Of a DNA stretch of 38,677 nt, positions 509-38,586 are shown in pieces. Both the position numbers and the translations under genes were made by a program. Source of the stretch: a virus. Lineage: Duplodnaviria; Heunggongvirae; Uroviricota; Caudoviricetes. The notes under the pieces are model-generated. The model made no database searches and was not told the origin of the DNA. It was given only the letters and a program-made list of their open reading frames with translations. Numbering within the stretch: the first letter of the stretch is position 1; each line of letters opens with the position of its first letter. The stretch lies in the IMG/VR virus record IMGVR_UViG_3300045988_139913. The stretch is one strand, 5' to 3'.

Positions 509-1604
509 TGCTCTGTTCAGAAGTAAATCACTGGAGAATCCTTCCACCCCGATAACCGGTGATGCCGTTGATACTGATGGGCTGTTCCGGGCAGACGTTT
601 ATGTCAGTCCTGAGACTGCGATGAAACTGGCTGCGGTGTATTCCTGTATCTATGTCCTGTCTTCCAGCCTTGCCCAGATGCCGTTGCATGTTATGCGCAG
701 GCACAAGGGGAAGGTTGAACCCGCACGCGATCATCCGGCGTTTTATCTGGTTCATGATGAGCCCAATACCTGGCAAACCAGCTACAAATGGCGCGAACTG
801 AAGCAACGTCACATCCTTGGCTGGGGGAATGGGTATACCTGGGTGAAACGTAATCGTCGCGGTGAAGTCATATCCCTGGATTGCTGTATGCCGTGGGAAA
901 CGACGCTGATGAATACTGGTGGCCGATATACCTACGGTTTGTACAACGAATATGGGGCGTTTGCGATCAGTCCGGACGATATGATCCACATCCGTGCGCT
1001 GGGTAATAATCAGAAGATGGGGCTGAGTCCGATTATGCAACATGCCGAAACAATAGGCATGGGGATGAGCGGTCAGAAGTACACAGAAAGCTTCTTCAGC
1101 GGTAATGCCCGTCCGGCGGGGATAGTATCCGTTAAAAGCGGACTCAATAAGGAAAGCTGGGGCTGGCTTAAAGATCAGTGGCAGAAGGCATCGCAGGCGT
1201 TACGCCGCCAGGAAAACAAAACCATGCTGCTGCCAGCCGATCTGGATTACAAGGCACTGACTGTGTCGCCAGTTGACGCTCAGATCATTGACATGATGAA
1301 GCTGAACCGTTCAATGATCGCCGGTATTTTCAATATTCCTGCGCACATGATTAATGACCTCGAAAAAGCCACCTTCTCCAATATTTCTGCGCAGGCGATT
1401 CAGTTTGTCCGCTACACGATGATGCCGTGGGTGACGAACTGGGAGCAGGAGCTTAACCGTCGCTTGTTTACCCGCGCTGAGTTAGCCGCCGGGTATTACG
1501 TCAGGTTCAATCTGACGGGGCTTTTACGCGGAACTCCGCAGGAGCGCGCGCAATTCTATCACTTCGCTATTACCGATGGATGGATGAGCCGTAATGAGGC
1601 CCGC
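498..1604 (+). pseudogene. Portal gene of the flanking phage (HK97-like family), 5' portion, interrupted by the Mu-like insertion
   Basis: ORF-track ORF 450..1607; likely GTG start at 498 preceded by AAGGGGG; C-terminal region ...LLRGTPQERAQFYHFAITDGWMSRNEAR is portal-like; reading frame is cut by the prophage end at 1605, whose TGA supplies the stop. Confidence 0.65.
1600..1604. repeat. Target-site duplication CCCGC (right-end side of prophage)
   Basis: CCCGC immediately outside the prophage terminus; identical 5-mer at 38582..38586. Confidence 0.8.
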
Positions 1605-1700
1605 TGAAGCGGCGCACGAAAAGCGCGAAAGCGTTTCAAATAAAATACGAAAACTCAAAACTTTCGCGCTTCAATTGAGACAGTTGTTTTATGTATGTCA
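1605..1700. other. Prophage right end (attR) with transposase-binding repeats (R1-R3 region)
   Basis: TGAAGCGGCGCACGAAAAGCGCGAAAGCGTTTCAAATAAAATACGAAAAC with repeated CGAAA motifs, as in the Mu right end. Confidence 0.75.
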
Positions 1701-2144
1701 GTTTCGTTTACATTTATACGTCTTAAAAATATTCACATCATCTCGGATATAAAGATTTTTTCCTGATTTATCAACGATAAAATACTTTATAACCGCAGGA
1801 TTTCTAGTCAAAGCATAGAGATAATCAGTCCCTTTAATCTTTTCATCCTTGTCTTGTTCGTCAATTTGGCCTGTTTCTATCTGAGTGTATAGTTCACCTG
1901 TATCAAGGTCTGTCCATGACCCCATATCAACGCCCATATGCATACGAATACCGTGGCAGGTCCAAAAACCAGAGGCAGGGGCTTTATTTGCAACACTCTT
2001 ATCTGGATCTATCCCGGCGGACCTTAAGACTGCATCAGCAGCCACTTCAGGATCAAAATCTTTTTCTTGAGCGTGATTGACTGAGGAGGCGGTTAGTACG
2101 AATAGGCTGATGATGGTACTGATTAGCAATTTTGATTTTTTCAT
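1698..2144 (-). CDS. Secreted/periplasmic protein of unknown function (148 aa); moron between mom and attR
   Basis: N-terminal Sec-type signal peptide MKKSKLLISTIISLFVLTASSVNHA; own GGAG RBS; strongly AT-rich relative to flanking phage DNA; two Cys (C63, C146). Confidence 0.7.
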   Translation of the reverse strand: MKKSKLLISTIISLFVLTASSVNHAQEKDFDPEVAADAVLRSAGIDPDKSVANKAPASGFWTCHGIRMHMGVDMGSWTDLDTGELYTQIETGQIDEQDKDEKIKGTDYLYALTRNPAVIKYFIVDKSGKNLYIRDDVNIFKTYKCKRN

Positions 2145-2188
2145 CTAATATGCTCCGTATGTGAGTAAATACATAAATTTATATGATA

Positions 2189-2926
2189 CTAATCAGAACT
2201 GCTTTTTGGGTATGGCTGAATCCTGAATAGTTTGGTATTTAGCCGCTTTCTTGCTCGCTTGTTCAGGAACCTGATGTAGCGATACTGATTAAATTTGTGC
2301 ACCACGGCACGCTCTTTATTAGCCCGTAAATACATGCCTCGTTGTCCACCGCGCTTAATTGCGTTCATCGTTATCTCGTGATACCACTCACCATCCAGCT
2401 CGTAGAACGTGCTTTCATGGCTGCCAATAAAATCAAAATTTGACGCCTGATACACAACGCCAGCACGTCCGCAGCGTTCGTCTGCAAAAGACTGAACCCA
2501 CTCCACTGACGGATACAGTAACCTTATGGTTTTCAGTGCATAACTGATGGCCCGTGATTCAGAGTTGCGGGGCATGTCGTCGTGTAGCCACATGCGGTTC
2601 AACTCCATATAGCCCCGGTTATCCGTTTCAAGCACGACACGACGACCAGAGTTGGGGTTAAGGGCATATCCCCACTGGAGAACGCCAACCAGATCGCGTC
2701 CGCTGAATACTCCCAAGTGGAGGTAAGAGTTATTCACAAAACGGCGGGAATAGTGCTTTGTCTGAATAATTGTGCGGGCCAGCCAGCAGGATATGGTTTC
2801 AACGCGCAGCTCCTTTGAACCATAGCCAACAATCTGGCTTTCATACTCAATAACGCACGGTTTCGTCAGAATGCGTGATTTCTTCTCTTTTCCCACAATG
2901 TTTCTCCGTGGGATGCTCGCAGGCAT
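2189..2926 (-). CDS. mom: Mom DNA-modification protein
   Basis: Overlaps the 3' end of com as in Mu; last gene before the right end region; true start uncertain (ORF-track start is the longest possible). Confidence 0.8.
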
Positions 2927-3035
2927 TCAGCATTATGATATGACGTTTGCAACGCGGACACCTGATTTCAATGTGATCAAAGGAATCCGCCTTAAATAAC
3001 AGTTTGTTGCAGTTTTTACAGCGAATTGATTTCAT
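2847..3035 (-). CDS. com: Com, zinc-finger translational activator of mom
   Basis: 62 aa, [34 protein letters not shown]... with CxxC...CxxC; AGGAGG RBS; matches Mu Com as I recall it. Confidence 0.9.
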
Positions 3036-3093
3036 CTCACCTCCTTTGCATCAATTCGCCACTATCTTAAAAAACATCGTGGGTTGAGTGTGG

Positions 3094-3150
3094 TTATTGG
3101 GGCATAATCGATCTGTATTGCCGATCGATTTGATTGATTCGATCGTCGTT
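3094..3150 (-). promoter_or_regulatory. Pmom control region: dyad TTATTGGGGCATAA (candidate C-activator site) plus three clustered GATC (Dam) sites
   Basis: TTAT-N6-ATAA dyad at ~3094-3107 about 60 bp upstream of com ATG; GATC at ~3110, 3123, 3141; matches the known Dam/OxyR/C-regulated architecture of Mu Pmom. Confidence 0.6.
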
Positions 3151-3711
3151 TTCTATATGCGTTCGTTTCGCGGGGTGTTTTTTATACAGAGTTGACAGAG
3201 CCACATCATAGATCAATGCAACCTGCTTGCGGGGGATTCCTTGTGCTAATAAACGCCCGGCCTGCTCCCATTCCGCTTTGGTTAGTTTAGGTGGTCGCCC
3301 ACCAATACGGCCTTTATTTCTGGCGGCAGCAAGTCCAGCCATCGTTCGCTCGATGATTAGTTCTCGTTCCATTTCAGCCAGGGCACCCATAACGTGGAAG
3401 AAAAAACGCCCCATTGGAGAAGATGTGTCTATGCTGTCGGTAAGACTGCGAAAATTAATCCCTCGCTCCCGTAGTTCCCCGACGAGGGAAATCAGATGTT
3501 TCATGCTTCGCCCGAGGCGATCCAGTTTCCAGACAACCAGTGTGTCACCTTTTTGAAGGCGCTTTAACGCGCGTTTTAATCCAGGTCTGTCTGTCCTTGT
3601 TCCGCTTAATTTATCTTCAAATATTTGTTCACATCCTGCACAAACAAGAGCGTTTCGTTGCAGGTCTGTATTCTGGTCATTTGTTGATACCCTTACATAG
3701 CCAATCAGCAC
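3094..3711 (-). CDS. gin: Gin serine DNA invertase
   Basis: N-terminus MLIGYVRVSTNDQNTDLQRNAL typical of Gin/Hin/Cin/Pin resolvase-invertase family; adjacent to gix site. Confidence 0.95.
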   Translation of the reverse strand: MLIGYVRVSTNDQNTDLQRNALVCAGCEQIFEDKLSGTRTDRPGLKRALKRLQKGDTLVVWKLDRLGRSMKHLISLVGELRERGINFRSLTDSIDTSSPMGRFFFHVMGALAEMERELIIERTMAGLAAARNKGRIGGRPPKLTKAEWEQAGRLLAQGIPRKQVALIYDVALSTLYKKHPAKRTHIENDDRINQIDRQYRSIMPQ

Positions 3712-3765
3712 TCTGGATCTCCCGTTTAAAAGCGCAAATCATGCCATGCAGGCCGGAAACAACCA

Positions 3766-3799
3766 TTATCTAAAACCTCGGTTTACAGGAAACGGTAAA
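3766..3799. repeat. gix recombination site (gin-proximal inverted repeat of G segment)
   Basis: TTATCTAAAACCTCGGTTTACAGGAAACGGTAAA; inverted copy at ~6535..6569. Confidence 0.85.
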
Positions 3800-4736
3800 T
3801 CAGGCTTCTGGCTCATTACAGAAAAACCAGAACGGCGCAGATATTCCGGGAAAAGATACCTTCACCAAAAATATTGGTGCCTGCCGCGCATATAGCTCAT
3901 GGCTGAATATTGGTGGCGATAGTCAGGTCTGGACAACCGCGCAATTTATTTCGTGGCTGGAGAGTCAGGGAGCATTTAACCATCCTTACTGGATGTGCAA
4001 AGGCTCATGGGCTTATGCAAATAATAAGATCATTACAGATACAGGTTGCGGAAATATTTGTCTTGCAGGTGCTGTGGTGGAAGTTATTGGCACTCGCGGC
4101 GCAATGACCATACGCGTTACTACGCCGAGCACGTCCAGCGGTGGCGGAATTACTAACGCTCAATTCACCTATATTAATCATGGTGATGCTTATGCTCCTG
4201 GCTGGCGACGAGACTACAACACGAAAAACCAGCAGCCTGCATTTGCTTTAGGGCAAACAGGAAGCACTGTCGGAAATGATAAAGCTGTTGGCTGGAACTG
4301 GAACAGCGGGGTTTATTGCGCCAGCATCACCGGCGCATCAACATTAATTCTTCATTTCAATATGAATACGGGTAGTTGTCCAGCAGTACAGTTCCGCGTG
4401 AATTATAAGAACGGCGGTATCTTTTATCGTTCAGCCCGTGATGGTTATGGTTTTGAAGCCGACTGGTCCGAATTTTACACCACCACCAGAAAACCTTCAG
4501 CAGGAGATGTTGGTGCATATACTAAAGCGGAATGTAATTCACGATTTATTACAGGTGTCCGTTTAGGAGGACTGTCATCTGTTCAAACATGGAATGGGCC
4601 TGGTTGGTCTGATAAGTCAGGTTATGTCGTTACAGGTTCAGTTAACGGAAACCGTGACGAATTAATTGATACAACTCAGGCAAGGCCAATTCAGTATTGC
4701 ATTAATGGGACGTGGTATAACGCGGGGAGTATTTAA
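3774..4736 (+). CDS. Sv' alternative tail-fibre variable segment (no own start; expressed only after G inversion as Sc-Sv' fusion)
   Basis: Frame open from the gix core (NLGLQETV, identical to the Sc/Sv junction in S) to stop at 4736; ORF track only reports it from an internal ATG at 3993. Confidence 0.75.
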   Translation, partial: NLGLQETVNQASGSLQKNQNGADIPGKDTFTKNIGACRAYSSWLNIGGDSQVWTTAQFISWLESQGAFNHPYWMCKGSWAYANNKIITDTGCGNICLAGAVVEVIGTRGAMTIRVTTPSTSSGGGITNAQFTYINHGDAYAPGWRRDYNTKNQQPAFALGQTGSTVGNDKAVGWNWNSGVYCASITGASTLILHFNMNTGSCPAVQFRVNYKNGGIFYRSARDGYGFEADWSEFYTTTRKPSAGDVGAYTKAECNSRFITGVRLGGLSSVQTWNGPGWSDKSGYVVTGSVNGNRDELIDTTQARPIQYCINGTWYNAGSI

Positions 4737-4738
4737 CG

Positions 4739-5272
4739 ATGATGCACTTAAAAAACATTACTGCTGGCAATCCTAAAACAAAAGAGCAATATCAGCTAAC
4801 AAAGCAATTTAACATCAAATGGCTTTATACAGAGGATGGAAAAAACTGGTATGAGGAACAAAAGAATTTCCAGTCTGATACGTTGAAAATGGTCTATGAC
4901 CATAACGGCGTTATTATTTGTATTGAAAAGGATGTTTCAGCAATTAATCCAGAAGGCGCAAGCGTCGTTGAATTACCTGATATTACAGCAAATCGCCGGG
5001 CTGATATTTCGGGTAAATGGATGTTCAAAGATGGTGCGGTGATAAAGCGAACTTATACCGGGGAAGAGCAGAGGCAGCAGGCAGAGAATGAAAAACAAAG
5101 CCTGTTGCAACTTGTCAGGGATAAAACCCAGCTATGGGACTCACAGCTACGGCTGGGCATCATTTCCGATGAGAATAAACAGAAATTAACCGAGTGGATG
5201 CTCTATGCGCAGAAAGTCGAATCCACAGACACCTCCAGCCTGCCGGTAACATTCCCCGAACAACCAGAATGA
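4739..5272 (+). CDS. U' tail-fibre assembly protein (alternate orientation set)
   Basis: 177 aa immediately after Sv'; tail-fibre assembly (Tfa)-like; convergent with U. Confidence 0.75.
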   Translation: MMHLKNITAGNPKTKEQYQLTKQFNIKWLYTEDGKNWYEEQKNFQSDTLKMVYDHNGVIICIEKDVSAINPEGASVVELPDITANRRADISGKWMFKDGAVIKRTYTGEEQRQQAENEKQSLLQLVRDKTQLWDSQLRLGIISDENKQKLTEWMLYAQKVESTDTSSLPVTFPEQPE

Positions 5273-5398
5273 GAAAGGCCCGTTATCGGGCCTTAATTTT
5301 ACTCAGGCTTTTGTGGCCATCCAGGCTTTTCCATATCCACATGACTGCGGAAAGCAAGGAAATACAAAATAACAAAAATGATAATAATTGTGCTGGTA

Positions 5399-5884
5399 TT
5401 ATAGCGTCGTTTTCACATCCTCTGCGCTGCTCTCTTTGCCGCTTTGTTCGTCTGGAACAGCGGGCCACTCAATATCCGTCGCGGTTGATGTATCAATACG
5501 CATAAGCAGCACACGATATTTTTTCCATTCAGCCAGTACAGTGATTTCTGCTTCTGTCGCCATCCCTGCGTCAACAGCATCCTGCCGCCAGGCAATTTCT
5601 GTGTTCGCAATCTCGGCTAAATCCTTTTTCTTCTGCTCTTTTAATGCGATTAACTGCTCTGTTGTTGGTTCTGATACATCAATCCATGTAGGGAAACCAG
5701 ATTCATCACGGCCTCTCTTTTTTCCCTCTGGCGGTCTTCCCGTAAACTCTTCATACATATCGTTTGTGACTGCCACCAAATCGTCAGGCCATGCGCCTGA
5801 TTTTTCATAGTCCGGTTTCATGGATTCAAAGAAAAACGTATTATTCCTGGCACTATAGAATATTTTACTGGACATGATTAACAC
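5399..5884 (-). CDS. U: U tail-fibre assembly protein (currently expressed set)
   Basis: 161 aa directly downstream of S, Tfa-like. Confidence 0.75.
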   Translation of the reverse strand: MLIMSSKIFYSARNNTFFFESMKPDYEKSGAWPDDLVAVTNDMYEEFTGRPPEGKKRGRDESGFPTWIDVSEPTTEQLIALKEQKKKDLAEIANTEIAWRQDAVDAGMATEAEITVLAEWKKYRVLLMRIDTSTATDIEWPAVPDEQSGKESSAEDVKTTL

Positions 5885-7065
5885 CCCACACCAATACAGA
5901 AGAATGGTTTAGAAACAGCAACCCCAGACCTTTCCATTAACGTGACCTGCATATCGCGATCATTTAATCTTTTAACACCCGCAATTGCACTTGCTATCGA
6001 GTCACCAGCAACGTTACAGGCTAACAAACCAAAGCAACGAACAGGCCAACCAACAGGAAACGGGGCAGATGCCCAGCCACTGGCATCAGTATTTCCCCAA
6101 CACCATTGAAAAATGATGCCATTTGGAAAACGTACCCAGCCAGCATCGGCCATCGCCTGGGTAAAATCACTGTTTTTTGTATACCCCTGAATGCTCCATC
6201 CATTCTGGGGAATTAACTGCCTGATATTTCCATCCAAAGTAAATGCAACCTTGCGGCGGTCAGAAATATTGCCTGCCGGAGACAATGCAACATCTATGTA
6301 GTTCGCGCCATTTTCCATTATTCCGCAAATGAGCGATGACATAATCGCTCCGCCAAATGAGAAATCGACTCCATTTGCACTTCCTGCAACCGTGCTCTTG
6401 TTTCTGATGTGAATACCAGAAAAGCCATTATCTTTTTCAATAAGTAATTCATTCCCAATTAACGAGAGAATGCCCTTGATAATCACATCACCGTTAACCA
6501 CCCCGCCATATGTTGATAACGCTTCCGAAGCTAATTTTACAGTTTCCTGTAAACCGAGGTTTTGGATAAACAGCGGCTTATTGGGAATATCTGCTCCGTT
6601 CCGGTCTTTTGCCAGACGGGCATTGGCATTATCCATCGCAATTTTCACCGCTTTTGCGGTGGCTGCCAGCGTTTCACTGGGGCTGTCAGTGGCACTGGTT
6701 AGCTGAACGAGTCCTTTTTTGTTCAGGCTGGCATCCCAGATATCCAGATTTTCACGTGCTGTACGCTGTGCTGATGCCCCGGCAGTTTTAATTTCGCTGA
6801 GGTTATTTTTTATCAGCAGCGCGTTATTGCTCATAATGGCTTTAATGGACAGTGCAAGCTGGTTTAATTTTGTTTTATCCGGTTGAATACCGGCTTCTTC
6901 CAGCGTGTTTAATAACTCCGCCTGCACAATATTAAACCAGTCCATGCCGGGCCATGTGATAACATTATTCCCGTCACCTTCTGAAAACCAGCGAACGATA
7001 GCACTACGCTGGGCGGATACGGGCGGCATGACGGTTACGCCGCTGTCGTTATCAATATAAAACAT
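5878..7065 (-). CDS. S: S tail fibre (Sc constant part ~6538..7065 fused to Sv variable part inside G)
   Basis: 395 aa; spans the gix site at ~6538-6561 (NLGLQETV); start overlaps stop of upstream gene (TAATG). Confidence 0.85.
   Translation of the reverse strand: MFYIDNDSGVTVMPPVSAQRSAIVRWFSEGDGNNVITWPGMDWFNIVQAELLNTLEEAGIQPDKTKLNQLALSIKAIMSNNALLIKNNLSEIKTAGASAQRTARENLDIWDASLNKKGLVQLTSATDSPSETLAATAKAVKIAMDNANARLAKDRNGADIPNKPLFIQNLGLQETVKLASEALSTYGGVVNGDVIIKGILSLIGNELLIEKDNGFSGIHIRNKSTVAGSANGVDFSFGGAIMSSLICGIMENGANYIDVALSPAGNISDRRKVAFTLDGNIRQLIPQNGWSIQGYTKNSDFTQAMADAGWVRFPNGIIFQWCWGNTDASGWASAPFPVGWPVRCFGLLACNVAGDSIASAIAGVKRLNDRDMQVTLMERSGVAVSKPFFCIGVGC
6535..6569. repeat. gix recombination site inside S (Sc/Sv junction)
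   Basis: TTTCCTGTAAACCGAGGTTTTGGATAA, inverted repeat of the site at 3766..3799. Confidence 0.85.
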
Positions 7066-7607
7066 TAGTTATCTCCGTCATGGTAAACAAATTTATAAAT
7101 CTGATGTGCGGGTTTATATTTCTCCAGTAAACATTCCAGCGCACCCGATTCATAAACACGTAACGGCGTCAGAACATTATCCAGCACCGTTGCGTTGCGA
7201 TAATTTTTAATACCGTAAATATTGACCTGCGTAACCCACTGGCCTTCTGTGGAATCCGTCAGCCTGACGGTAAAACCGTACTGCGCAGCCAGCCATTCAT
7301 AAAAGCGCCGACTCAGATTGCCGGTCATACGCATTTTATTCGCGGCAGCCCGCTGGCGTTCGGACAGGGTGCCGTTTTCGCTGGTACAGTCCGGCAACCC
7401 CAGAAATGATTCCCACTCCCCCAGATACCAGCGGGATGTGGACGGGAAACGCTCCCGCAGCATTTGCCGCGCATCATCCGCCGCAGTGGCAATCACGTCG
7501 CTGATGGCCTGCGCCAGCGCAGATAATTTGCTGTCGGGGCTTTTATTCCAGGCAAGCCCTGACGGCAGTAATTGCAGAAAGGCCGTCTGATAGGGTGTTA
7601 CAGCCAT
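7065..7607 (-). CDS. Tail protein (Mu gp48-like)
   Basis: 180 aa between baseplate R and fibre S, Mu gene order. Confidence 0.7.
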   Translation of the reverse strand: MAVTPYQTAFLQLLPSGLAWNKSPDSKLSALAQAISDVIATAADDARQMLRERFPSTSRWYLGEWESFLGLPDCTSENGTLSERQRAAANKMRMTGNLSRRFYEWLAAQYGFTVRLTDSTEGQWVTQVNIYGIKNYRNATVLDNVLTPLRVYESGALECLLEKYKPAHQIYKFVYHDGDN

Positions 7608-8680
7608 TCAATTGTCCCCGGTGTTAACAGTTCCGTATTCTCCGAACGCTGGATCTCTGTCGGGAAACGCACTTCAAAATCATCCAGACCGGTAACACCT
7701 GCCACCGCACGGATAATACGGGAGGGGGCAAGTGCGCCGCCCGGCGTCACCTCATTAAAAAACATGGTATTAATGGCGTGAGTAATAGCCTGTTTCAGTT
7801 CGGCTGTCTTCGGTGATATATAAATCCGTGGATTTACCGGCTTTGCCTTTGGCGCAAATACCGTGACATTTACACCATCAGGCTGCCCGACAATCAGGCC
7901 GGTTATCGGGTCAGTATGACCGGCGATATAATCCGCCACACGTTCCACATCTGCCGGTTGTGGAAAAATATTGATCCGGTTATCCATAACAAACGTCACC
8001 CCGACTGTGCCACCGCCTTTCCATGTCGGAAAACACCAGGCACGGGTAACGCCGCTGACTTCACGTGCCCAGCGGACGTAATCAAACTGATTACCGCCGA
8101 ACGGAGGATACTGGACACGATATTCCAGCCGTGACAGCAGCTCCGCTGCACTCTCAATATCTGCCCCACCGGAAAACCCTTTTACAGTGATGGCATCGGA
8201 AACAACACAGGCAACCGGGGTGATCAACGTTAAAAGGGTATTCTCACCGGTATTTCCTGCTTCACCGGCAGCCAGTGCGGTAACGGTAATTTCCGTCGTT
8301 CCTGCACGGTCAATCACAATGGCATCAGCCAGGCTGTAAACCACACCATCAGCACGCTGCCAGCGTGTACCGGCAGGAATGGTGGTCGCTGCCGATGTGG
8401 TGACAGTCAGCGGGCCGCTGGCGGCTGTCGCCTGTTTGCGGCGCACGCCCCAGAACCGGCAGTGCTCCAGCAACTCATCTTCATCTGCTGTCGACGGGAT
8501 AATCTGCCGTCCAACCCATGAAATATGCTCGTGACAACCGGCAGCAAGGCCTGCCTGAGCATAAGCAATGGCACTCAGCGTTTTTTCACGGGCCTGAGGC
8601 CAGCTACCCGGCAGGCGCTGTTCAATATTCTGTTCTGTACGGGCAATCAGCGATGATAATGTCGGTGGTGAATAAGCCAT
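7598..8680 (-). CDS. R: Baseplate J-like protein
   Basis: 360 aa; position and size as Mu gp47. Confidence 0.75.
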   Translation of the reverse strand: MAYSPPTLSSLIARTEQNIEQRLPGSWPQAREKTLSAIAYAQAGLAAGCHEHISWVGRQIIPSTADEDELLEHCRFWGVRRKQATAASGPLTVTTSAATTIPAGTRWQRADGVVYSLADAIVIDRAGTTEITVTALAAGEAGNTGENTLLTLITPVACVVSDAITVKGFSGGADIESAAELLSRLEYRVQYPPFGGNQFDYVRWAREVSGVTRAWCFPTWKGGGTVGVTFVMDNRINIFPQPADVERVADYIAGHTDPITGLIVGQPDGVNVTVFAPKAKPVNPRIYISPKTAELKQAITHAINTMFFNEVTPGGALAPSRIIRAVAGVTGLDDFEVRFPTEIQRSENTELLTPGTIEWL

Positions 8681-29348: not shown

Positions 29349-29352
29349 CTGT

Positions 29353-30309: not shown

Positions 30310-30329
30310 GGCGGTGCTGCAACACCGCC
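30310..30329. other. Short hairpin between gemA start and the divergent acidic ORF
   Basis: GGCGGTG-CTGCAA-CACCGCC. Confidence 0.3.
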
Positions 30330-30359
30330 ATATTCAGTAATAACATAAAAGGAAATATT

Positions 30360-30719: not shown

Positions 30720-30972
30720 CCGCTGAATCATCAACGCCAAGCTCACGACAAACAATATTGTTGTGGGCTTTTTTGTTATGCAACAAAACTTCGTCGCGTA
30801 TGAGATGAATTTCCCGTGTCATAATTTCAAGGGCCTCTCTCGCAGAAAAGCCTTTACTGATTGCAGTCTCAATAACATCGCGCATACGCTCAAGCATCTT
30901 AGCTTTCACCAGTTCTTCATCCAGGTCTTTAGGCGTAAATTTAGTTTCATTATTCATATTATTCACCTTCAC
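30667..30972 (-). CDS. Early-region protein (101 aa)
   Basis: In-series with early operon; 3' end overlaps the plus-strand acidic ORF by ~50 nt. Confidence 0.55.
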   Translation of the reverse strand: MKVNNMNNETKFTPKDLDEELVKAKMLERMRDVIETAISKGFSAREALEIMTREIHLIRDEVLLHNKKAHNNIVCRELGVDDSAVIPQRQYLCALMRGSRH

Positions 30973-31141
30973 AATTCATGCACGCCGTGTCATCGCCCAT
31001 ATCGCAGTGGTTGCATTTCTGCCCGCCACAATGAGGGCACTCTTTCAGATATTCAGGAGATTCATTACCGCAGGTCGGGCATTCCTGTTTCACCGTGGTA
31101 AATTTCCCCAGCCACGAATACGATGTTTCATTGTTTTTCAT
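30959..31141 (-). CDS. Small zinc-ribbon protein (60 aa)
   Basis: CPTCG...CPHCGGQKCNHC...CMNCEG; 8 Cys in 60 aa. Confidence 0.55.
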   Translation of the reverse strand: MKNNETSYSWLGKFTTVKQECPTCGNESPEYLKECPHCGGQKCNHCDMGDDTACMNCEGE

Positions 31142-31668
31142 TGTTTTCCATTGTTTACCTCCGCCTGTTTTTGCGCCCGGATAAATTCGTCAGAAAGGAT
31201 TTCAGTCATGCGGCCTTGTGCGGGTGTCATCCCCGTCATGACGTAAATCACATCACCAACACGGAACCACTGGAGCGGCCCGAATATTGTTGCGCTGAAA
31301 TCCAGTCCCAGTGCGGGTAAAAGAGCGTCTGTGCGGGCGTAAGTGACCGGAATATTCTCCTGCCATATTTTCGCCAGCTCTCTTGCCTGCTCCCTGAGAT
31401 GAGCAGGTATCCGTGAAGTTCTGGGCCTGCAACTGTTACCTGATGCGGGCCGTTGTACGGTCCACAGCTCCCGCGAGAAGGGGCGCTCATTCCCCGGAAA
31501 ATTCACGCCATGAAAATGACGCCCACCAATACCTGTGCTGAATACTGACCGGCAACCACAGCCCAGAACCTTATCAAGATGGCGGGCTTCTTCGCGTAGT
31601 TTCAGGCAGTCCGCCATAAACTGGTCCCATGCCAGCAGTGCTGCGGAATTTGACGTTTTAAAAAACAT
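31138..31668 (-). CDS. Early-region protein (176 aa)
   Basis: ORF-track ORF 31138..31707 trimmed to Met overlapping upstream stop. Confidence 0.55.
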   Translation of the reverse strand: MFFKTSNSAALLAWDQFMADCLKLREEARHLDKVLGCGCRSVFSTGIGGRHFHGVNFPGNERPFSRELWTVQRPASGNSCRPRTSRIPAHLREQARELAKIWQENIPVTYARTDALLPALGLDFSATIFGPLQWFRVGDVIYVMTGMTPAQGRMTEILSDEFIRAQKQAEVNNGKQ

Positions 31669-32198
31669 CACGCCACCTCCTGCACCGCTGCGGGAACCGG
31701 AGAACAATCAAGAATGAGATAACGCAGTACATGGTCGGTGATATTCCAGGCGCTTGAACTGCAAATAAAACGCCCCAGCCGGATATCGATATAAGCCATC
31801 ACAAAACGGGGCATACCCTGTTCGCACATGCTGTTGTCCACTTCTGCAACGATGTGAACGGATTCACAGGTCAGTACGCCCGTCGCAAACTCTTTTGCCA
31901 GCGCGGGGATGGTATTACCTTCCACCCAGGGTAATGAGCGACGCCAGTTGCACCACACCGCATCATCAACAGCAGGCTGCTCAGTTACGTTTCGTCTTAC
32001 AGGCGGCGTCGGACGCGGGCGCGGAACGTCATAAAATCCGTTGCATTCGGTGAGCACTCCGGCATCAACTGCATCACGCAGGAAATACACCATTGACGAG
32101 GGCAGCATATTCATTTTTTCAGCCAGAACTCCGCAGGTCAGGCGTCCGTAAGCCCGTAATAATGTGCTGACACCATTCAGAATTTTTGCATCAACCAT
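31668..32198 (-). CDS. Early-region protein with N-terminal winged-helix-like segment (176 aa)
   Basis: Downstream of gam; N-terminal ~60 aa resemble a wHTH. Confidence 0.5.
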   Translation of the reverse strand: MVDAKILNGVSTLLRAYGRLTCGVLAEKMNMLPSSMVYFLRDAVDAGVLTECNGFYDVPRPRPTPPVRRNVTEQPAVDDAVWCNWRRSLPWVEGNTIPALAKEFATGVLTCESVHIVAEVDNSMCEQGMPRFVMAYIDIRLGRFICSSSAWNITDHVLRYLILDCSPVPAAVQEVA

Positions 32199-32296
32199 GT
32201 TTTATTCCTCAGTAATCTGTTTCAGGCGCGAGCAATCCCCTGACGCATCGCGCCATAATTAAAAGAATGTGAATTAATTAAATATTAATGGTGGTA

Positions 32297-32821
32297 TTAA
32301 ATACCGGCTTCCTGTTCAAACGGAATAATGGAAAAATCTTCAATTCCCGATTTAACTGTAATTCCGGCAACACTTGCGACCGCTTTCGGTTCCAGTAAAA
32401 TCGCTTCCTTGTTGATTTCCTGCTTCGTGCGAATAAAGCGTTGCAGGCCAAGACGCTCCAGCGTTTCCATCACTGCATCCATACCACGAATACTTACTGA
32501 GGGTGGACGGACCCGCCACGATACATCACCGGTGACAAGATTCGCCGTCTTCACTTTGCCGCCGTTTGTCAGTTCGTCGCGGTTCGCTTCACACCATCCC
32601 TGAACACCTTTTGAAAGGGTTTCAATATCGGTTTTAATCGGTGCAATCCGGGCTGCAAATTTCTCCGTAATTTCCGCGATGGCATCATTCATTTCCGTTT
32701 CCAGACGTGATGCTTCGCGCTGTAAATCCCCGATGCGTTTAATATCGGTAATCACCGCATCGCGGTTTTGTGGCACATAAGCCGCTGCGGCACTTTTGAT
32801 ACGTTTTGCTGGTTTAGCCAT
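32297..32821 (-). CDS. gam: Gam host-nuclease inhibitor (Ku-like DNA end-binding)
   Basis: 174 aa MAKPAKRIKSAAAAYVPQNRDAVITDIKRIGDLQRE...; matches Mu Gam as I recall it. Confidence 0.9.
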   Translation of the reverse strand: MAKPAKRIKSAAAAYVPQNRDAVITDIKRIGDLQREASRLETEMNDAIAEITEKFAARIAPIKTDIETLSKGVQGWCEANRDELTNGGKVKTANLVTGDVSWRVRPPSVSIRGMDAVMETLERLGLQRFIRTKQEINKEAILLEPKAVASVAGITVKSGIEDFSIIPFEQEAGI

Positions 32822-32840
32822 AAATTAAAGCTCCTGTTAA

Positions 32841-33140
32841 TTAATATCCGCTGTATACAATGCTGGATACAGCCCGATTGCTTAATTCCATCTTTCGGGC
32901 AATGACATGAATATCCAGCCCTTCTTTATAAAGTTCACGACACAAATATTTGTCGTGCTCACTGATTCGGTATACACACAATGATATTCCGTGCCTTCTG
33001 GCATGTGCCCGGAGGGCGGTTGTGGCGACTTTCAGTTTTTCCGCCATTTCTTCAACGGTCATTTTCCCGACGTTGGCTTCGATAAATTCCCGGTCTTCGC
33101 GTGACCAGCGCTTACGATTACACTTCATGTCAGCCACCAT
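32841..33140 (-). CDS. Early-region protein (99 aa)
   Basis: Co-directional ORF in early operon. Confidence 0.55.
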   Translation of the reverse strand: MVADMKCNRKRWSREDREFIEANVGKMTVEEMAEKLKVATTALRAHARRHGISLCVYRISEHDKYLCRELYKEGLDIHVIARKMELSNRAVSSIVYSGY

Positions 33141-33560
33141 TCAGTACAGCAGAGGCTCGCGCAGTGGTGCCGGAATATGTCGCAGCGATAACTGAACCGC
33201 TTTCAGGGCAAGCGAGGAATAACAGCAGCGCGCCCAGCCTTTTGCCATTAACCGGTAATCGCGCCAGATACGCTGCCACATTTCACGGGCTTCAGGGTCT
33301 GATGCGCAGATGTATTCCCGGTCCATGACGTACTCCCATAAATCCACGTTGAACGCACCTCCAAATGCAATGGCGCGGGATATGCTTTCGCCGCAATAAC
33401 GCGCACAGATGCTGTAATGGTCGAAAGCAATCAGGTACGTCTTTTCACCACAATCATCAACTTTCCTGGCGCAAATAAACTCGCGTAATTCACCACCGTT
33501 GTTATTGCGTTCCTGAATTCGGATTAATGCCTGAATTTCATTTCGGATTTTGACGTTCAT
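33141..33560 (-). CDS. Early-region protein (139 aa)
   Basis: Co-directional ORF in early operon. Confidence 0.55.
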   Translation of the reverse strand: MNVKIRNEIQALIRIQERNNNGGELREFICARKVDDCGEKTYLIAFDHYSICARYCGESISRAIAFGGAFNVDLWEYVMDREYICASDPEAREMWQRIWRDYRLMAKGWARCCYSSLALKAVQLSLRHIPAPLREPLLY

Positions 33561-33580
33561 TGTCAGCGTTCCTTTGCGAA

Positions 33581-33850
33581 TTAATGTTTAACCGCATTCA
33601 CCGGATGTGGTACTAAATCACATTCAGCTTCCATACCCACTTTCTTCATAGTGGTCAGCATCTCATCTTTGGCCTTTTTAATAATTTCAGGAGCCATAGT
33701 CAGGACGATATTTGCCAGTAAATCATGAGGCCCGGTATTTTCCGTTGGCGAGATATCTGCAAGACATGCTTTTGCATCCAGAACTTCTCTGCGCCCATTG
33801 CAACCGTCACTACTTTCCAGCCATGTAAACTCAAAGATAACCTTTGCCAT
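33581..33850 (-). CDS. Early-region protein (89 aa)
   Basis: Co-directional ORF in early operon. Confidence 0.5.
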   Translation of the reverse strand: MAKVIFEFTWLESSDGCNGRREVLDAKACLADISPTENTGPHDLLANIVLTMAPEIIKKAKDEMLTTMKKVGMEAECDLVPHPVNAVKH

Positions 33851-33861
33851 TTTGTTTCTCC

Positions 33862-34092
33862 TTATTGATTCTGAATAACTGCGCTGGCTTTTACCTTCGC
33901 GCCTTTTACCTGCTTAAAGAAAACCGCGCTGCACCACGGACAACATGTCAGGGAATCCCGAATTTCCTTTTCGGGTGAGCATTGCGTCATAATCTGTTCA
34001 CCACATCCGGGGCATTTATATGTCGTCAGCGGCAACCCGTGGCACTGACAGTGTTTAACCCATTCAATATATTTTTCAGCTTTAATACACAT
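33862..34092 (-). CDS. Small zinc-ribbon protein (76 aa)
   Basis: ORF-track ORF 33862..34116 trimmed to ATG with GGAG RBS; CQCHG...CPGCG...CCPWC motifs. Confidence 0.55.
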   Translation of the reverse strand: MCIKAEKYIEWVKHCQCHGLPLTTYKCPGCGEQIMTQCSPEKEIRDSLTCCPWCSAVFFKQVKGAKVKASAVIQNQ

Positions 34093-34094
34093 CG

Positions 34095-34322
34095 TTATCT
34101 CCAGATAATCTGGCAACCATTAAGACGGGCCGTCCATACAGAACGGGCCACCCCGGACTTATGCTCCATAATTCTGACCGCGTTTTTTACCAGTTCCACC
34201 GGTGGGTAAGTGATTTCAAGAATCGGACGCGCCACGCCGAGATATGATTCATTTACATGACTCCCGCGCGCCTGTAACCAGTTCTGCGCATCCGTTGCCA
34301 TTTTTATATTTCGGGCCATCAT
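34095..34322 (-). CDS. Small protein in Mu kil position (75 aa)
   Basis: First ORF after B, AAGGAG RBS; assignment as Kil is positional only. Confidence 0.55.
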
Positions 34323-34337
34323 AATTTCTTCTCCTTC

Positions 34338-35276
34338 TTAATTACGCAGCAGCGTTGAAATATCAACGTCCAGGTCTAATTCACGGAAAGCCTGACGCAG
34401 ATAATCTTCGTTAACACGCTCACCTTTACCGTGAGCCGTCATGGCGGCAAGGCGAAGTGAATGATTCAGAATGCGAAGCGCACCTGGTTTCTGCGCAATC
34501 TGCTGTAATAACTCCAGTTCTTTTTCGCCGTTAATCTGCCAGGCATCCGCAATAGCTTTTACATCGGCTTTTTTGGTTTTATTAATTGCAGTGCGCTTTG
34601 CAATACGGGAAAACAGACGGGCAAATTCAACCGTTCTGTTACCCCCCGTCATATTTGAATAAACCCGGTGATTTCCCATCAGCACAAGGCCAATACGGGT
34701 TGATTCCTGTAACAGGCGGAGTTCTTCCAGAACTTCGGCACCAAGATGATCAGCTTCGTCGATGATAACCAGCCCCTGTGTACCTTCAAGGCGACGTCGC
34801 AGGGCGCGGGAGAGCGGCCCTTTACGGCGTGGTGCGTCATTCATTCCCAGCTCAAACGCCAGTTCAGTAAGACATTCCAGAACGCTGGCACAGGATGGCG
34901 TAATGGTGATCATCCAGACATTGTTATTGGTGCGGCGATATTCACGGGCCGCTTCGGTTTTGCCCACACCAGGATTGCCACATACAACAGCAATACTTTC
35001 AGTCAGGCTGGCAAAACGCATACTTGTCCAGATTTGTTTTACCGTCTGCGTTTCCACAAAGCGGGGCGGTTCAGGTAGTTCTGCAACTGCATGATATTTT
35101 TCCAGCCAGCGTTGCAGCATTTGTGAAACACGCTCGTTATCCCCGTTGTACTTATCATTGATAAAACTACTGATAGTTCCGGTAGAAAGTCCGCTCTCAA
35201 GAGCAATTTGTTTAAAGGTGGTTTCTTCATTTTCTACAAGCGTGCGCAGTCCTGCGCGAATATCGGAAATATTCAT
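34338..35276 (-). CDS. B: Transposition ATPase/target DNA activator MuB
   Basis: 312 aa; Walker A GNPGVGKT; N-terminus MNISDIRAGLRTLVENEE as Mu B. Confidence 0.95.
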   Translation of the reverse strand: MNISDIRAGLRTLVENEETTFKQIALESGLSTGTISSFINDKYNGDNERVSQMLQRWLEKYHAVAELPEPPRFVETQTVKQIWTSMRFASLTESIAVVCGNPGVGKTEAAREYRRTNNNVWMITITPSCASVLECLTELAFELGMNDAPRRKGPLSRALRRRLEGTQGLVIIDEADHLGAEVLEELRLLQESTRIGLVLMGNHRVYSNMTGGNRTVEFARLFSRIAKRTAINKTKKADVKAIADAWQINGEKELELLQQIAQKPGALRILNHSLRLAAMTAHGKGERVNEDYLRQAFRELDLDVDISTLLRN

Positions 35277-35314
35277 CTGAATAACCTCGTAATTAAATTT
35301 TGTTTAAACGTTAA

Positions 35315-37303
35315 TTAAATGGCTTTTTTACGTCTGTTCTGTTCCAGAATATCCAGCGAATGATTCAGATATTCATCACGCTCAGTTTCGTATTCATCAT
35401 CACGCTCCTGATTCTTCACTCGTTCCGTATTACCGGAAGGCCGGAAAATGCCGACAATTCGTGATTCTGGTGCTTCAGGTTCGGCTATCTGCGGCAGCAG
35501 CTCTGCCACTTCCAGTGCATCCATTTGTTTCTGTGCCTTAATTGCTGCTTTCGTCGCAGATTTCAGTTGTTTCTGGCGGCGGCGATATTCACGGCCTGCC
35601 GCAGCATCATTAAACGCAACAGGTGCCAGACATTCCGCTTCACAGATAAACCGACCGTCAAGGGTGTAGCAATAAACCGTGCTGTGTAACTGCTGTGGAT
35701 CAAATCTGACCACAACTTTTTTTACTCCGGCATTCATTAACGCCATGTTGTAATAAACGTTTTTCGCACCTTTAAGGGAGCCACCAACTTTAAGCGCGAA
35801 CTCGCCTTTACGTGAAACGTTCACTGCCTCGGCAGGCAGTAACAGCATCCGTTTTTGCTCTTCGGTAGGCTTACGCACAATCGTTCTGGCGTATTCACGC
35901 TCAAAAACGTCATCAAACGAAAGTTTGCCTCCGCACATTTCTGTTTCACGGCCTGTTCTGGCATTGAACATCGCCACACCTTCGGCAAGGGTTTTCAGAA
36001 ACAGCTCTGCATCAACAGCGCGGTCGCCATAGTTATCAGGTTTTGCCTGCGGATTAGGCCCCGTATATGCGCCAGCCAGTGCCGGATGCTTATCAACGTA
36101 TTCCTCAAGCCCACCAACACCGAAAGCACGTTCAACAGGTTTTGCCTGGCCCCAGCCTTTACCGGCAACAACGCTTGTCCAGTGCATTTTCGCCCCCATC
36201 AGTAAAAACAGTCCTTTTGGATCGTCCTCTTTTACCTTAAAGCGGTAGCGATTGGGCGCGCCTCCCGTCAGCCATTTATTCGCAGCACCACGGGTGTTAT
36301 CAATGGTGATGTGAAAATCCTCCGGGATACCGTAGCGAGTCACAACATCCATGAACGAGAGGCGAATTGAATCAATGTTCTCGCTCACATCGCAGCGCCA
36401 GCCCAGAATTTTTCGGGTTTTCACATCCTGCCAGAACCATGTTTTCGGACGGATCACATCACCGTTAAACCAGCGTACAAAGACGTTATGCAGATAACCG
36501 TCGCCGTTGATCCACTGCATGGCGTCCAGGTGTTCCACAGTTCGCTGCTGTGCCGGTATCAGATGCATCAGTGCATGTTCACCTTCACGACAGGCAACAA
36601 CCATTGCCTCGTCCAGTTGCTGAATCCGGCGAAAGGCCGTGGCACGGGAGGGAATACTCCAGCCATGCTCGCGGGCTGCCAGTTCCAGACGCTCATAACA
36701 TTTGCGGAAGGCGGGTTTTTCCGGTCGCAGATAATCTGCAATCAGAAACTGCCAGGCATCCTCGTCAAATTCACTTTTGTGAACATTGCGACGGGATGCT
36801 CCACGTCCATCAACAAGTGCAGCCGCCCAGTCAGGCTTCGCAAACTTCTGTACCTGGTAATACTTGTCCCGCAAAGTGGATGCGCTGACCTGGTAATGCC
36901 CTGCAACGGTCGCAAAAGCCGTTTTCGTTGAAATCCCCTGGTTCAGCATTTCGTCTGCAGCCTGAACCGCAGGCAACCATTTTTCAGCAAGTCTGCGCTG
37001 GGAATCGCTGGCGTTATCCCATTTGCTCCACAGTGCCTCACGATCATAATCATGGGCTTCCAGCGTGGGGCGGGCGATTTCAAAATACCCCTGACTTGTT
37101 TCAATTCTCCCTTGTTGCAACAGAATTTCAGCACGTAATGCGACAGGGAATGATTTGATATTGAATTCAAATGATACACCTTTAGTCCCTGCAACCTGCC
37201 TGAACTCCCAGCCTTCTCTTTGTGCCTTACGTGTAATGTTAGTGGCTTGCTTTGGTAAACCTGCCAAACCGAGCAACTCTTTTGCTGTATACCATTCTTT
37301 CAT
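35315..37303 (-). CDS. A: DDE transposase MuA (D108-type N-terminal domain)
   Basis: 662 aa; C-terminal ~600 aa as Mu A; N-terminal ~60 aa diverged and homologous to the N-terminus of the adjacent repressor. Confidence 0.95.
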
Positions 37304-37310
37304 AGCGCAC

Positions 37311-37532
37311 CTAGTATCGAGACGGCCAAATATCTTGCGGTGTCATTCCCAGTGCATCTGCAATGATTTTCTCCGCTTTCGGATATCTCTTATCCAAAGC
37401 ATTTTTTAATGTTGAAGACGAAAGATGATTAGATCTTCCCAATTCAGCTAGTGACATATTGCGTTTTCGTAGCTCTGCAACGATGTCAGCTCTGTGCCAA
37501 TCTTGGCGGTTAGTTCTTTTATTCATATGCAT
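37311..37532 (-). CDS. ner: Ner DNA-binding regulator (D108-type)
   Basis: 73 aa [73 protein letters not shown]; first gene of early operon. Confidence 0.9.
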
Positions 37533-37717
37533 TTCATGTAATCCTTTCAGATTCCCCCGTGAGCTACGCTATAAAGTAGCTCACGGCATATCGTGCAATG
37601 TAGTGTGGAATCATTTTTAAATCAATAGTGATTTGAAAGGATTTATCATGATTTCATATAACAGCATGATTTTTATATGAATTTATTTTGTCTCTATTGA
37701 AATCACTAGGATTTTAA
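37533..37717. promoter_or_regulatory. Immunity/operator region between ner and c (divergent Pe/Pc promoters, repressor operators, transposition enhancer)
   Basis: AT-rich 185-bp divergent intergenic region with repeated TAGTGATTT-type motifs. Confidence 0.7.
37557..37586. promoter_or_regulatory. Ner operator: two perfect 11-bp inverted repeats separated by 8 bp
   Basis: CCGTGAGCTAC-GCTATAAA-GTAGCTCACGG; matches the D108 ner operator architecture as I recall it. Confidence 0.7.
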
Positions 37718-38242
37718 ATGATGTCTTTTGAAATCAAAGAATGGTTTAATGCGAAAGAGCTGGAAGGGATGCCTGGTGTACCAAAGTTGGCGACTAACAT
37801 TACCAGGAAAGCTGTGGCGGAAGATTGGGTAAAACGTCAGCGTCACGGTGGGAAAGGTGTCGCTTATGAGTATCACATCAACAGTCTGCCAGAAGAAACA
37901 CGCAGGGCCATTAAAGGAGCCTCACTTTCTGATAAACCAGTGCATACATCAATCGTCCATACAGTTGATGAGAGGCTAATTTATGCAATGAGTTTCTTAA
38001 CACCAGATGAGCAGGCCGCAGCAGTGGAGATCATTCGTGTAGCAGGGATTAAAGGACTTATGCCTACAATTGTCAGTAAAGATAAGGCATTAGAGGCATT
38101 AGGGATTACTGTGGAGCAACAGAAAACCCTGCAAACTCTTCAGGCATTACCACCGGAAAAAGTGAGAGAGATTTTGTCTCAGTATGAAGGCAAAGAACAT
38201 AATTTCCCTGTAAGAGAAAACGATGTAAAGAAAGCTGTATAA
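37718..38242 (+). CDS. c: Immunity repressor c (D108-type)
   Basis: 174 aa, divergent from ner, pointing toward attL; N-terminal domain homologous to the MuA N-terminus ([25 protein letters not shown]). Confidence 0.85.
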   Translation: MMSFEIKEWFNAKELEGMPGVPKLATNITRKAVAEDWVKRQRHGGKGVAYEYHINSLPEETRRAIKGASLSDKPVHTSIVHTVDERLIYAMSFLTPDEQAAAVEIIRVAGIKGLMPTIVSKDKALEALGITVEQQKTLQTLQALPPEKVREILSQYEGKEHNFPVRENDVKKAV

Positions 38243-38399
38243 CAACCAGGTAATAGCTAAGACATAAACTTCACTCCAGGTAATTACATATGTAAGATAC
38301 TCAAACAGTGATGATTGTTTTTGACACACATCACTTGCTGAAAGCCTGGTTGTTACCGTTTTTGAAGCATTTTTGAAGCTGTACTTGAAATGATGCGTG

Positions 38400-38581
38400 A
38401 AGTAATTGCTTTTCGTGTCTTTAATGAATCAAAAGCTGTTTCCAACAATCTTTCGCGTTTCAAGATGTAACGGCTAAAATCTGTCCTACAGGCTTGCAAG
38501 CCCCACTAAATCTAATCCCGCCAAATACCGAATAATCCAATGTCCTCCCGGTTTTTTTCGTACTTCAAGTGAATCAATACA
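38400..38581. other. Prophage left end (attL) with transposase-binding sites L1-L3
   Basis: ...CCGAATAATCCAATGTCCTCCCGGTTTTTTTCGTACTTCAAGTGAATCAATACA is the reverse complement of the Mu left terminus; additional TTTCG(T/C)G repeats at ~38421 and ~38450. Confidence 0.8.
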
Positions 38582-38586
38582 CCCGC
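38582..38586. repeat. Target-site duplication CCCGC (left-end side of prophage)
   Basis: Identical to 1600..1604. Confidence 0.8.

Follow-up and report, generated by a model that had tools for sequence, protein, structure and literature searches.

Two well-described phages, Mu (NC_000929) and D108 (NC_013594, placed by NCBI in the species Muvirus mu), provide the framework for the element reported here, together with Mu_3F6 (LR595867.1), a plaque-forming phage that is spontaneously released by the infant-gut Escherichia coli strain 3F6 and was isolated from its supernatant (Mathieu et al. 2020, PMC6969025); LR595867 was tied to that study via the paper's supplementary table. The repressor of SfMu is 89% identical to that of D108 and approximately 24% identical to that of Mu (PMC4406740), and the published target consensus of Mu is 5'-CYSRG (PMC7350765).

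The window, i.e. the whole stretch of 38,677 nucleotides that was analysed, is one entire metagenome contig (NODE_164, coverage approximately 14x). Its positions 1605-38581 very probably constitute a complete Mu prophage of the D108 immunity type, belonging to the species Muvirus mu and placed by Mu transposition. Neither of the two tests made gave evidence against this identity, since the ends align with those of Mu and D108 and the flanks rejoin into one gene. The identification was already known and is a correct but ordinary find, because the element is one base away from a phage already isolated from infant-gut E. coli. The element, its ends and its surroundings are as follows.

1605..38581, minus strand (phage map on this strand): complete D108-type Mu prophage, 36,977 bp, by alignment with D108 and Mu_3F6
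1600..1604, no strand: target-site duplication CCCGC, copy at the Mu right end, read directly; single CCCGC in the empty site of NZ_CP062811
38582..38586, no strand: target-site duplication CCCGC, copy at the Mu left end, read directly and by the empty-site test
1605..1677, minus strand: right end (attR) with R1 (1615-1631), R2 (1637-1653) and R3 (1661-1677, inverted), by consensus scan
38410..38581, minus strand: left end (attL) with L1 (38555-38571), L2 (38450-38466) and L3 (38410-38426), by consensus scan
498..1604, plus strand: 5' part of the portal gene of a resident SfV/e14-like prophage (Pfam Phage_portal, E=8e-97)
38587..38677, plus strand: 3' part of the portal gene, exact continuation of the uninterrupted gene

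The alignment with D108 is collinear, with 98.3% identity over positions 1-32046 and 96.8% over 33235-36977 of the reverse-complemented element (el_rc), together 95% of its length. When the element is taken in halves, D108 covers 95-100% of each at approximately 98% identity (98.4% and 97.9%), which places the element within Muvirus mu by the species yardstick of at least approximately 95% nucleotide identity over most of the genome. Shared with D108 are the ends, c, ner, the operators, A, B, gp56 and the gene order. Every one of the 56 D108 genes is matched by a full-length counterpart free of gaps and stops, the exceptions being gp7, which is present as a divergent allele, and the Sv/U cassette (tail-fibre tip and chaperone), which has been replaced and is itself intact; 54 of the 56 proteins are 89-100% identical to those of D108. 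In contrast to the element, D108 carries a G(+)-side Sv/U cassette of approximately 1.45 kb (the replacement here measures approximately 1.2 kb), another gp7 allele (40% identity; Mu gp7 is 25% identical to the one found here) and a Gin protein without the 8 extra C-terminal residues. An alignment against Mu and D108 had been proposed as a check by a sequence-only reading of the window, and it bore that reading out, as the ends correspond and no internal deletion relative to D108 was found. The whole window yielded no Rfam match at gathering thresholds and no tRNA or tmRNA with ARAGORN.

The lysis, head and contractile-tail modules, controlled by Mor and C, are collinear and in D108 order, with full-length genes at 96-100% identity. 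In the Mu record, gp30 is named F and the tube gene gp40 is named M.

28141..29742, minus strand: middle activator Mor (29742..29356), then gp18-gp20, then late activator C (28560..28141), 99-100% identical to D108
26222..28043, minus strand: lysis region with endolysin gp22 (28043..27531), spanin gp23, gp24, gp25 and gp26, 96-100% identical to D108
17572..26207, minus strand: head and packaging genes gp36, gp35, T, I/Z, gp31.5, G, gp30, portal gp29, terminase gp28 and gp27, full-length and 96-100% identical to D108
20543..20743, minus strand: region matching the central strong gyrase site of Mu, 196/201 identical to Mu 17780-17980; the Mu cut site at 17879/80, annotated in NC_000929, falls at about window position 20643
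7068..17569, minus strand: tail and baseplate genes gp48, gp47, gp46, gp45, P, N, gp42, gp41.5, gp41, tube gp40, sheath L, gp38 and gp37, by D108 comparison each full-length, 97-100% identical and free of gaps and stops
12308..14392, minus strand: tape-measure gene gp42 with a stop-codon loss, TAA to GAA at 12322

The closest match is Mu_3F6, to which all 36,977 bp are identical save one base, with the G segment in opposite orientation; the rare Sv/U cassette, gp56, the gp7 allele and the 205-aa Gin are all shared. Two further apparent differences, located in the outer gix repeats, were rejected as artefacts of the position at which the in-silico inversion had been cut. The sole true base difference lies at window position 12322, where the tape-measure stop codon, TAA in D108, Mu and Mu_3F6, reads GAA, by which four residues (ENHV) are added to gp42 and the gene now overlaps the start of N. 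The earlier description of a complete gene set without obvious frameshifts holds for all 56 D108 genes (the gp7 allele and the Sv/U exchange set aside) and has to be amended for the tape-measure gene. As the contig was assembled at approximately 14x from a metagenome, the GAA base could be an assembly or population variant.

One alternative is that the prophage is structurally complete and no longer makes infectious particles, a defect that could be caused by the 4-residue extension of the tape measure or by regulatory or positional effects inside another prophage. The stop loss is missing from all three reference phages, and the occurrence of the same junction in several samples suggests vertical persistence, both of which would fit such a defect. 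However, the change in gp42 is a short C-terminal extension and not a truncation or frameshift, all other bases equal those of the plaque-forming isolate Mu_3F6, and both the ends and the genes for transposition match D108 or Mu_3F6 at 100%, so that we consider a defective prophage unlikely. The sequence-only reading had taken the element to be inducible and functional, and that view is strengthened because the near-identical Mu_3F6 was recovered as plaques from a lysogen supernatant; this copy is probably still inducible and would yield infectious particles.

The limits of the element (1605-38581, 36,977 bp) could be read directly from the sequence. On the right-end side the window runs through GTAATGAGG into CCCGC (1600-1604) and continues from 1605 with TGAAGCGGCGCACGAAAAGCGCGAAAG; on the left-end side CTTCAAGTGAATCAATACA ends at 38581 and is followed by CCCGC (38582-38586) and GCATTCGAG. 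On the minus strand of the window the element starts with TGTATTGATTCAC and finishes with GCGCCGCTTCA, i.e. TG...CA, which in phage orientation reads 5'-TGTATTG...GCTTCA-3'. The Mu-type TG...CA termini recognised previously match the ends of Mu and D108, with 200/200 identical positions over the left 200 bp and 118/120 over the right 120 bp in comparison with D108. Six MuA sites are present in the Mu layout, with L1 followed by L2 and L3 approximately 80 bp further inside and with R1, R2 and R3 contiguous and R3 inverted; their mismatches to the MuA-site consensus amount to 0, 2 and 1 for L1, L2 and L3 and to 0, 1 and 1 for R1, R2 and R3. The span initially assigned (1600-38586) was right to the base and included both copies of the duplication; given CCCGC at 1600-1604 and 38582-38586, the element itself occupies 1605-38581. 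CCCGC agrees with the Mu target consensus at 4 of the 5 positions.

Two fixed positions would carry the same 5 bp by chance with a probability of approximately 1/1024, and the decisive test of the duplication is the empty site. Window positions 1-1604 and 38587-38677 were joined, keeping one CCCGC, and the joined flanks gave a gapless alignment with a phage portal gene that is uninterrupted in E. coli NZ_CP062811, with 3 mismatches in 1,695 bp and none in the 136 bp that span the junction. Among complete E. coli genomes, no alignment ran on beyond window position 1604. Since the portal gene becomes continuous again, as it is in complete E. coli genomes, once the element and one copy of CCCGC are taken out, the perfect 5-bp duplication reported from the sequence is a real target-site duplication, both copies having been read and a single one being present in the empty site. 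The portal gene, the intact version of which is WP_000923135, is split after codon 369 of 408 and is now closed by a TGA at 1605-1607 that is provided by the Mu end. The arrangement is a nested one, in which a Mu-type prophage interrupts another prophage of the SfV/e14-like kind.

That this Mu-in-portal arrangement is a chimera of metagenome assembly is extremely improbable: the window is a whole metagenome contig at the coverage given above, and three related contigs (L008, L010, L011) stop at or beside the junction, but a chimera would not produce an exact 5-bp duplication at both junctions together with flanks that rejoin perfectly, and two independent assemblies, ERZ27239376 and a Logan run, contain the identical right-end junction. 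The three related contigs were not counted as having the insertion, because all of them merely end at or beside the junction. Recurrence of the junction in other samples shows stable inheritance of the lysogen and not activity. The Mu_3F6 record is flanked at its left end by 149 bp of yejO, where the element has the prophage portal gene, and a related prophage with the same ends, flanked by an ATAAA duplication, lies in agaC; elements of this kind are therefore inserted at different sites.

The immunity and early regions, with c on the strand opposite to ner, A and B, contain the following features.

37718..38242, plus strand: c, lysogenic repressor of the D108 immunity type (174 aa; Pfam Mu DNA-binding domain, E=3e-52), 99.4% identical to its D108 counterpart
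37532..37718, no strand: intergenic region from c to ner, which from established knowledge of Mu and D108 we take to be the operator and transposition enhancer; 187/187 identical to D108 864-1050
37314..37532, minus strand: ner, early negative regulator of the D108 type, 100% identical to D108 Ner
35318..37303, minus strand: A, DDE transposase MuA, 662 aa, 100% identical to D108 A (Pfam HTH_Tnp_Mu_1, HTH_Tnp_Mu_2, DDE_2 with E=2e-136, Mu-transpos_C)
34341..35276, minus strand: B, AAA+ target-capture and transposition protein, 99.4% identical to D108 B over 312 aa
29742..34322, minus strand: semi-essential early region with kil, gp6, gp7, gp8, gp9, gam, gp11-14 and gemA, by D108 comparison
30360-30719, plus strand: antisense 119-aa ORF in the early region (phrog_38610), DNA identical in D108

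With Mu, the element has in common the architecture, the end sequences over the left terminal approximately 55 bp and the R1 site, late genes at approximately 98%, the S'/U' cassette at approximately 94% and the strong gyrase site region, whereas the repressor/ner/operator region, the 5' end of A, gp7, the gp14-15 region and the Sv/U cassette differ. The description as a Mu-type prophage consequently stands for the ends and the layout and needs refinement for the immunity region and the right end, which are of the D108 type and not those of Mu proper. An identification as Mu proper, for which the approximately 98% identity across most of the late region could speak, is hardly credible, as the left 1.4 kb (c, ner, operators and 5' end of A) is 99-100% identical to D108 but poorly or not alignable with Mu (the immunity region aligns only over the first 360 bp, at 79%), the D108-like repressor of SfMu itself reaches only about 24% identity to the Mu repressor (PMC4406740), and Mu has no gp56 past mom.

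The right end of this D108-type prophage carries three genes.

2847..3035, minus strand: com, activator of mom translation (PF10122 Zn_ribbon_Com), 98.4% identical to D108 Com
2189..2926, minus strand: mom, DNA modification (anti-restriction), 99.6% identical to D108 Mom (Pfam Mom, E=1.9e-75)
1698..2144, minus strand: gp56, 'D108-specific protein', 148 aa with a signal peptide, 100% identical to D108 gp56 (phrog_15648)

The gp56 product is predicted to be a small, secreted beta-barrel. For gp7, the antisense ORF and gp56, neither PADLOC nor Pfam gave a match, and PHROGs gave only families of unknown function.

Between the right-end genes and the tail genes lies the invertible G segment with its invertase and two tail-fibre cassettes.

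3094..3711, minus strand: gin, serine invertase that acts on the G segment (205 aa; Pfam Resolvase and HTH_7)
3766..6569, no strand: invertible G segment, with gix sites inside the 34-bp inverted repeats at its two ends (3766-3799 and 6536-6569)
3843..5272, plus strand: silent cassette of the Mu/D108 S'/U' type, S'v (3843-4736; 96.3% identity to D108 S') and U' (4739-5272; 97.2% identity to D108 U')
5399..7065, minus strand: expressed cassette, tail fibre S (7065..5878; Pfam Phage_fiber_2 and Gp53-like_C) and tail-fibre chaperone U (5884..5399; Caudo_TAP)

Residues 1-197 of Gin are 100% identical to D108 Gin, with a C-terminal tail that is 8 aa longer here, and the two inverted repeats differ at 2 of the 34 positions. 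The expressed S tail fibre comprises 395 aa, of which 176 aa form the constant part. When the segment was flipped in silico at the gix core, the S protein of Mu_3F6 was obtained exactly, and both fusion ORFs (395 and 488 aa) are intact. The G segment has thus inverted within this lineage, being present in opposite orientations in two otherwise identical copies. At the DNA level, the variable Sv/U part was found among phage records only in Mu_3F6, and in 2 of the 5,426 complete E. coli genomes.

Following established Mu biology, MuA bound to L1-L3 and R1-R3 would have transferred both 3'-CA ends to the target strands with a 5-bp stagger, in the portal gene of another resident prophage that is now split, and gap repair would have left CCCGC on each side. 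In the lysogen, the D108-type repressor c would shut the early promoter at the operator/enhancer region; upon derepression, Ner, A and B would drive replicative transposition, after which Mor and then C would turn on the genes for lysis, head and tail, with headful packaging beginning at the left end. Gin presumably flips the G segment such that two pairs of tail-fibre tip and chaperone alternate, and Com and Mom would modify the DNA against restriction.

One may go further and read the rare Sv/U cassette in expressed orientation, gp56 and the antisense 119-aa ORF as functional adaptations (a new receptor specificity, a periplasmic exclusion or protective factor) instead of neutral mosaicism, and the portal-gene insertion as being kept for silencing a competitor prophage. 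This reading, which may be drawn from the presence of these genes and from the recurrence of the junction in several samples, appears to us very doubtful.

Beyond annotation, the importance of the find is small: it allows the contig to be annotated with confidence as a D108-type Mu prophage, in essence Mu_3F6, that disrupts an SfV/e14-like prophage of gut E. coli. It offers a clean natural case of the 5-bp duplication of Mu with a verifiable empty site and, in two copies that are otherwise identical, a natural case of a switched G segment. New insight into Mu host range or lysogenic conversion could come only from the rare tail-fibre cassette and from gp56.

Direct reading of the window gave ...GAGG-CCCGC-TGAAGCGGCGCACGAAAAGCGCGAAAG... 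at the right-end side and ...CAAGTGAATCAATACA-CCCGC-GCATTCG... at the left-end side, so that the two pentamers delimit an element of 36,977 bp. On the minus strand, which carries the phage map, the element starts with TGTATTGATTCAC and ends with GCGCCGCTTCA. Alignment to Mu (NC_000929) and D108 (NC_013594) identified these termini as the left and right ends of both phages, with 200 of the first 200 bp and 118 of the last 120 bp identical to D108. A consensus scan also found the MuA sites in the layout known from Mu. The sequence-only reading had reported Mu-type ends with identical CCCGC flanks at 1600-38586, which is the element plus both pentamers.

Features of the element ends
1600-1604, CCCGC, right-end side
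1605-38581, Mu-type element (phage map on the minus strand)
1615-1677, MuA sites R1, R2 and inverted R3
38410-38426, MuA site L3
38450-38466, MuA site L2
38555-38571, MuA site L1
38582-38586, CCCGC, left-end side

Since a 5-bp match at fixed positions has a chance of about 1/1,024, an empty-site test was run. Of 5,426 complete E. coli genomes, 1,925 contain a phage terminase/portal region that matches the left flank (1-1604) and, among the best matches listed (99.6-99.8% identity), the alignment ends exactly at 1604. When 1-1604 was joined to 38587-38677, keeping one CCCGC, this reconstruct aligned gaplessly with E. coli Res13-Sevr-PER07-33 (NZ_CP062811). Over 1,695 bp the two differ at 3 positions, all of them outside the 136 bp spanning the junction, and the joined flanks encode an uninterrupted 408-aa portal protein. 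The CCCGC pair, present as a single copy in this empty site, is a true target-site duplication. It agrees with the Mu target consensus 5'-CYSRG at 4 of 5 positions (PMC7350765).

Top matches in a megablast search of 50,697 phage records were D108, PhiR68_1, Mu, several Yersinia Mu-like phages and SfMu, together with Mu_3F6 (LR595867) at 100% identity. By pairwise blastn the element is collinear with D108, at 98.3% identity over positions 1-32046 and 96.8% over 33235-36977 (element coordinates, phage orientation); about 1.2 kb of its G segment, the Gin-invertible tail-fibre region, is replaced, and no internal deletion relative to D108 was found. In the same type of comparison to Mu, the repressor/ner/5'-A region, gp7 and the gp14-15 region could not be aligned either. 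After inversion of the G segment, the element is identical to Mu_3F6 save one base, at window position 12322. Another pair of seeming mismatches, located in the outer halves of the repeats that hold the gix recombination sites, resulted from the position of the in-silico cut. Mathieu et al. (2020) isolated Mu_3F6, under the name 'myophage Mu', from the supernatant of an infant-gut E. coli strain; their supplementary table links accession LR595867 to that name (PMC6969025). Judged by these alignments, the element is not a new phage but a D108-type Mu that is essentially Mu_3F6.

To assess gene content, all 56 annotated D108 genes were translated and searched against the window. Full-length, gapless and stop-free counterparts were found at 89-100% identity for all except gp7 and the tail-fibre cassette replaced relative to D108, which comprises U and the variable portion of S. 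The c-ner intergenic operator/enhancer region is identical to that of D108 (187/187), and the surroundings of the Mu strong gyrase site are nearly so to Mu (196/201). Searches of the window for Rfam families and tRNAs returned none.

Products recognised by Pfam
MuA transposase, four domains (DDE_2, E=2e-136)
Repressor, Mu-type
Gin invertase
Mom
Tail fibre, Phage_fiber_2 and gp53-like C-terminal domains
Chaperone, Caudo_TAP

The observation made in the sequence-only reading is thereby confirmed and its interpretation as a complete Mu-type prophage supported, with one reservation. At 12322, in gp42 (12308-14392, minus strand), the tape-measure stop TAA, kept in D108, Mu and Mu_3F6, has become GAA, which lengthens the protein by ENHV up to a TGA overlapping the N start. 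This stop loss alone stands against 'no defects'; given the metagenome coverage of about 14x, the base could be a minority variant or an error.

Some genes deserve separate mention. The gp7 gene (33581-33850, minus strand) represents a third allele: its identity is 40% to D108 gp7 and 25% to Mu gp7, with length and position unchanged. At 205 aa in both the element and Mu_3F6, Gin is longer than in D108 (197 aa) and Mu (193 aa); the additional residues form a C-terminal tail (3094-3120, minus strand) and the remainder is identical. Gp56 (148 aa) has a signal peptide and two invariant cysteines, and its homologues make up only 16 clusters, in E. coli, Citrobacter, Salmonella and Hafnia. Opposite the early operon, a low-GC stretch holds an antisense ORF (30360-30719, plus strand) for an acidic 119-aa protein, which falls in phrog_38610 (unknown function) and matched neither Pfam nor PADLOC entries; D108 carries identical DNA with the ORF left unannotated, and Mu lacks it.

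Related elements occupy other sites. Positions 1-149 of the Mu_3F6 record (L002) are E. coli yejO, host DNA at the left end outside the phage sequence, and this junction differs from the portal-gene junction of the window. In E. coli N1286 (NZ_CP178401; L005 1001-38143), a related 37,143-bp Mu-like prophage splits agaC with a 5-bp ATAAA duplication; it shares the end sequences of the element but differs in the repressor region. Mu-like prophages bearing mom occur in 98 of the 5,426 complete genomes, and the D108-type right end with gp56 in only 6, beside differing host genes.

The element would be expected to follow established Mu biology from MuA end-joining to Com/Mom protection. Upon infection, MuA bound to L1-L3 and R1-R3 would join the 3'-CA ends to a target captured by MuB, at positions staggered by 5 bp, and repair would give rise to the duplication. 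Repressor c would hold off the early promoter; derepression would lead to replicative transposition driven by Ner, A and B, and to late gene activation by Mor and then C. Headful packaging would begin at the left end, while Gin would alternate the tail-fibre tips and Com and Mom would protect the phage DNA from restriction.

The element has inserted into the portal gene of an SfV/e14-like prophage (flanks 1-1604 and 38587-38677), which combines HK97-type head genes with Mu-like contractile-tail genes, so that one prophage is nested in another. The portal gene is split after codon 369 of 408, a TGA from the Mu end providing the new stop, and 37 kb of oppositely oriented DNA now separates it from the protease and capsid genes. 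The insertion probably disables virion production by the resident prophage. The window is the entire metagenome contig NODE_164_length_38677 (ENA assembly ERZ1741935), and two independent assemblies, ERZ27239376 and Logan run ERR14032891, contain the identical portal/Mu-right-end junction, indicating that a lysogen with the nested prophage circulates. Three other metagenome contigs (among L006-L011) stop at CCCGC or one base beyond, as might result if their samples contain both occupied and empty sites.

The G segment (3766-6569) is bounded by 34-bp inverted repeats at 3766-3799 and 6536-6569. In the window, the S gene crosses the left repeat and encodes a protein of 395 aa, the chaperone after it having 158-161 aa, and the Mu/D108-type S'v-U' pair is inverted and silent. 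The expressed cassette (5399-6535, minus strand) encodes a tail-fibre tip with gp53-like C-terminal domain and its chaperone. At the DNA level it is present in Mu_3F6 only, among the 50,697 phage records, and at about 97% identity in 2 of the 5,426 complete E. coli genomes; within these collections, the tail-fibre cassette now expressed is rare. Mu_3F6 carries its G segment in the orientation opposite to that of the window, and when the segment of the window is inverted in silico at the gix core, the resulting 488-aa S is identical to the S annotated in Mu_3F6. Two otherwise identical genomes with opposite G segments are thus separated by Gin inversion, which provides direct evidence that the G switch works in this lineage.
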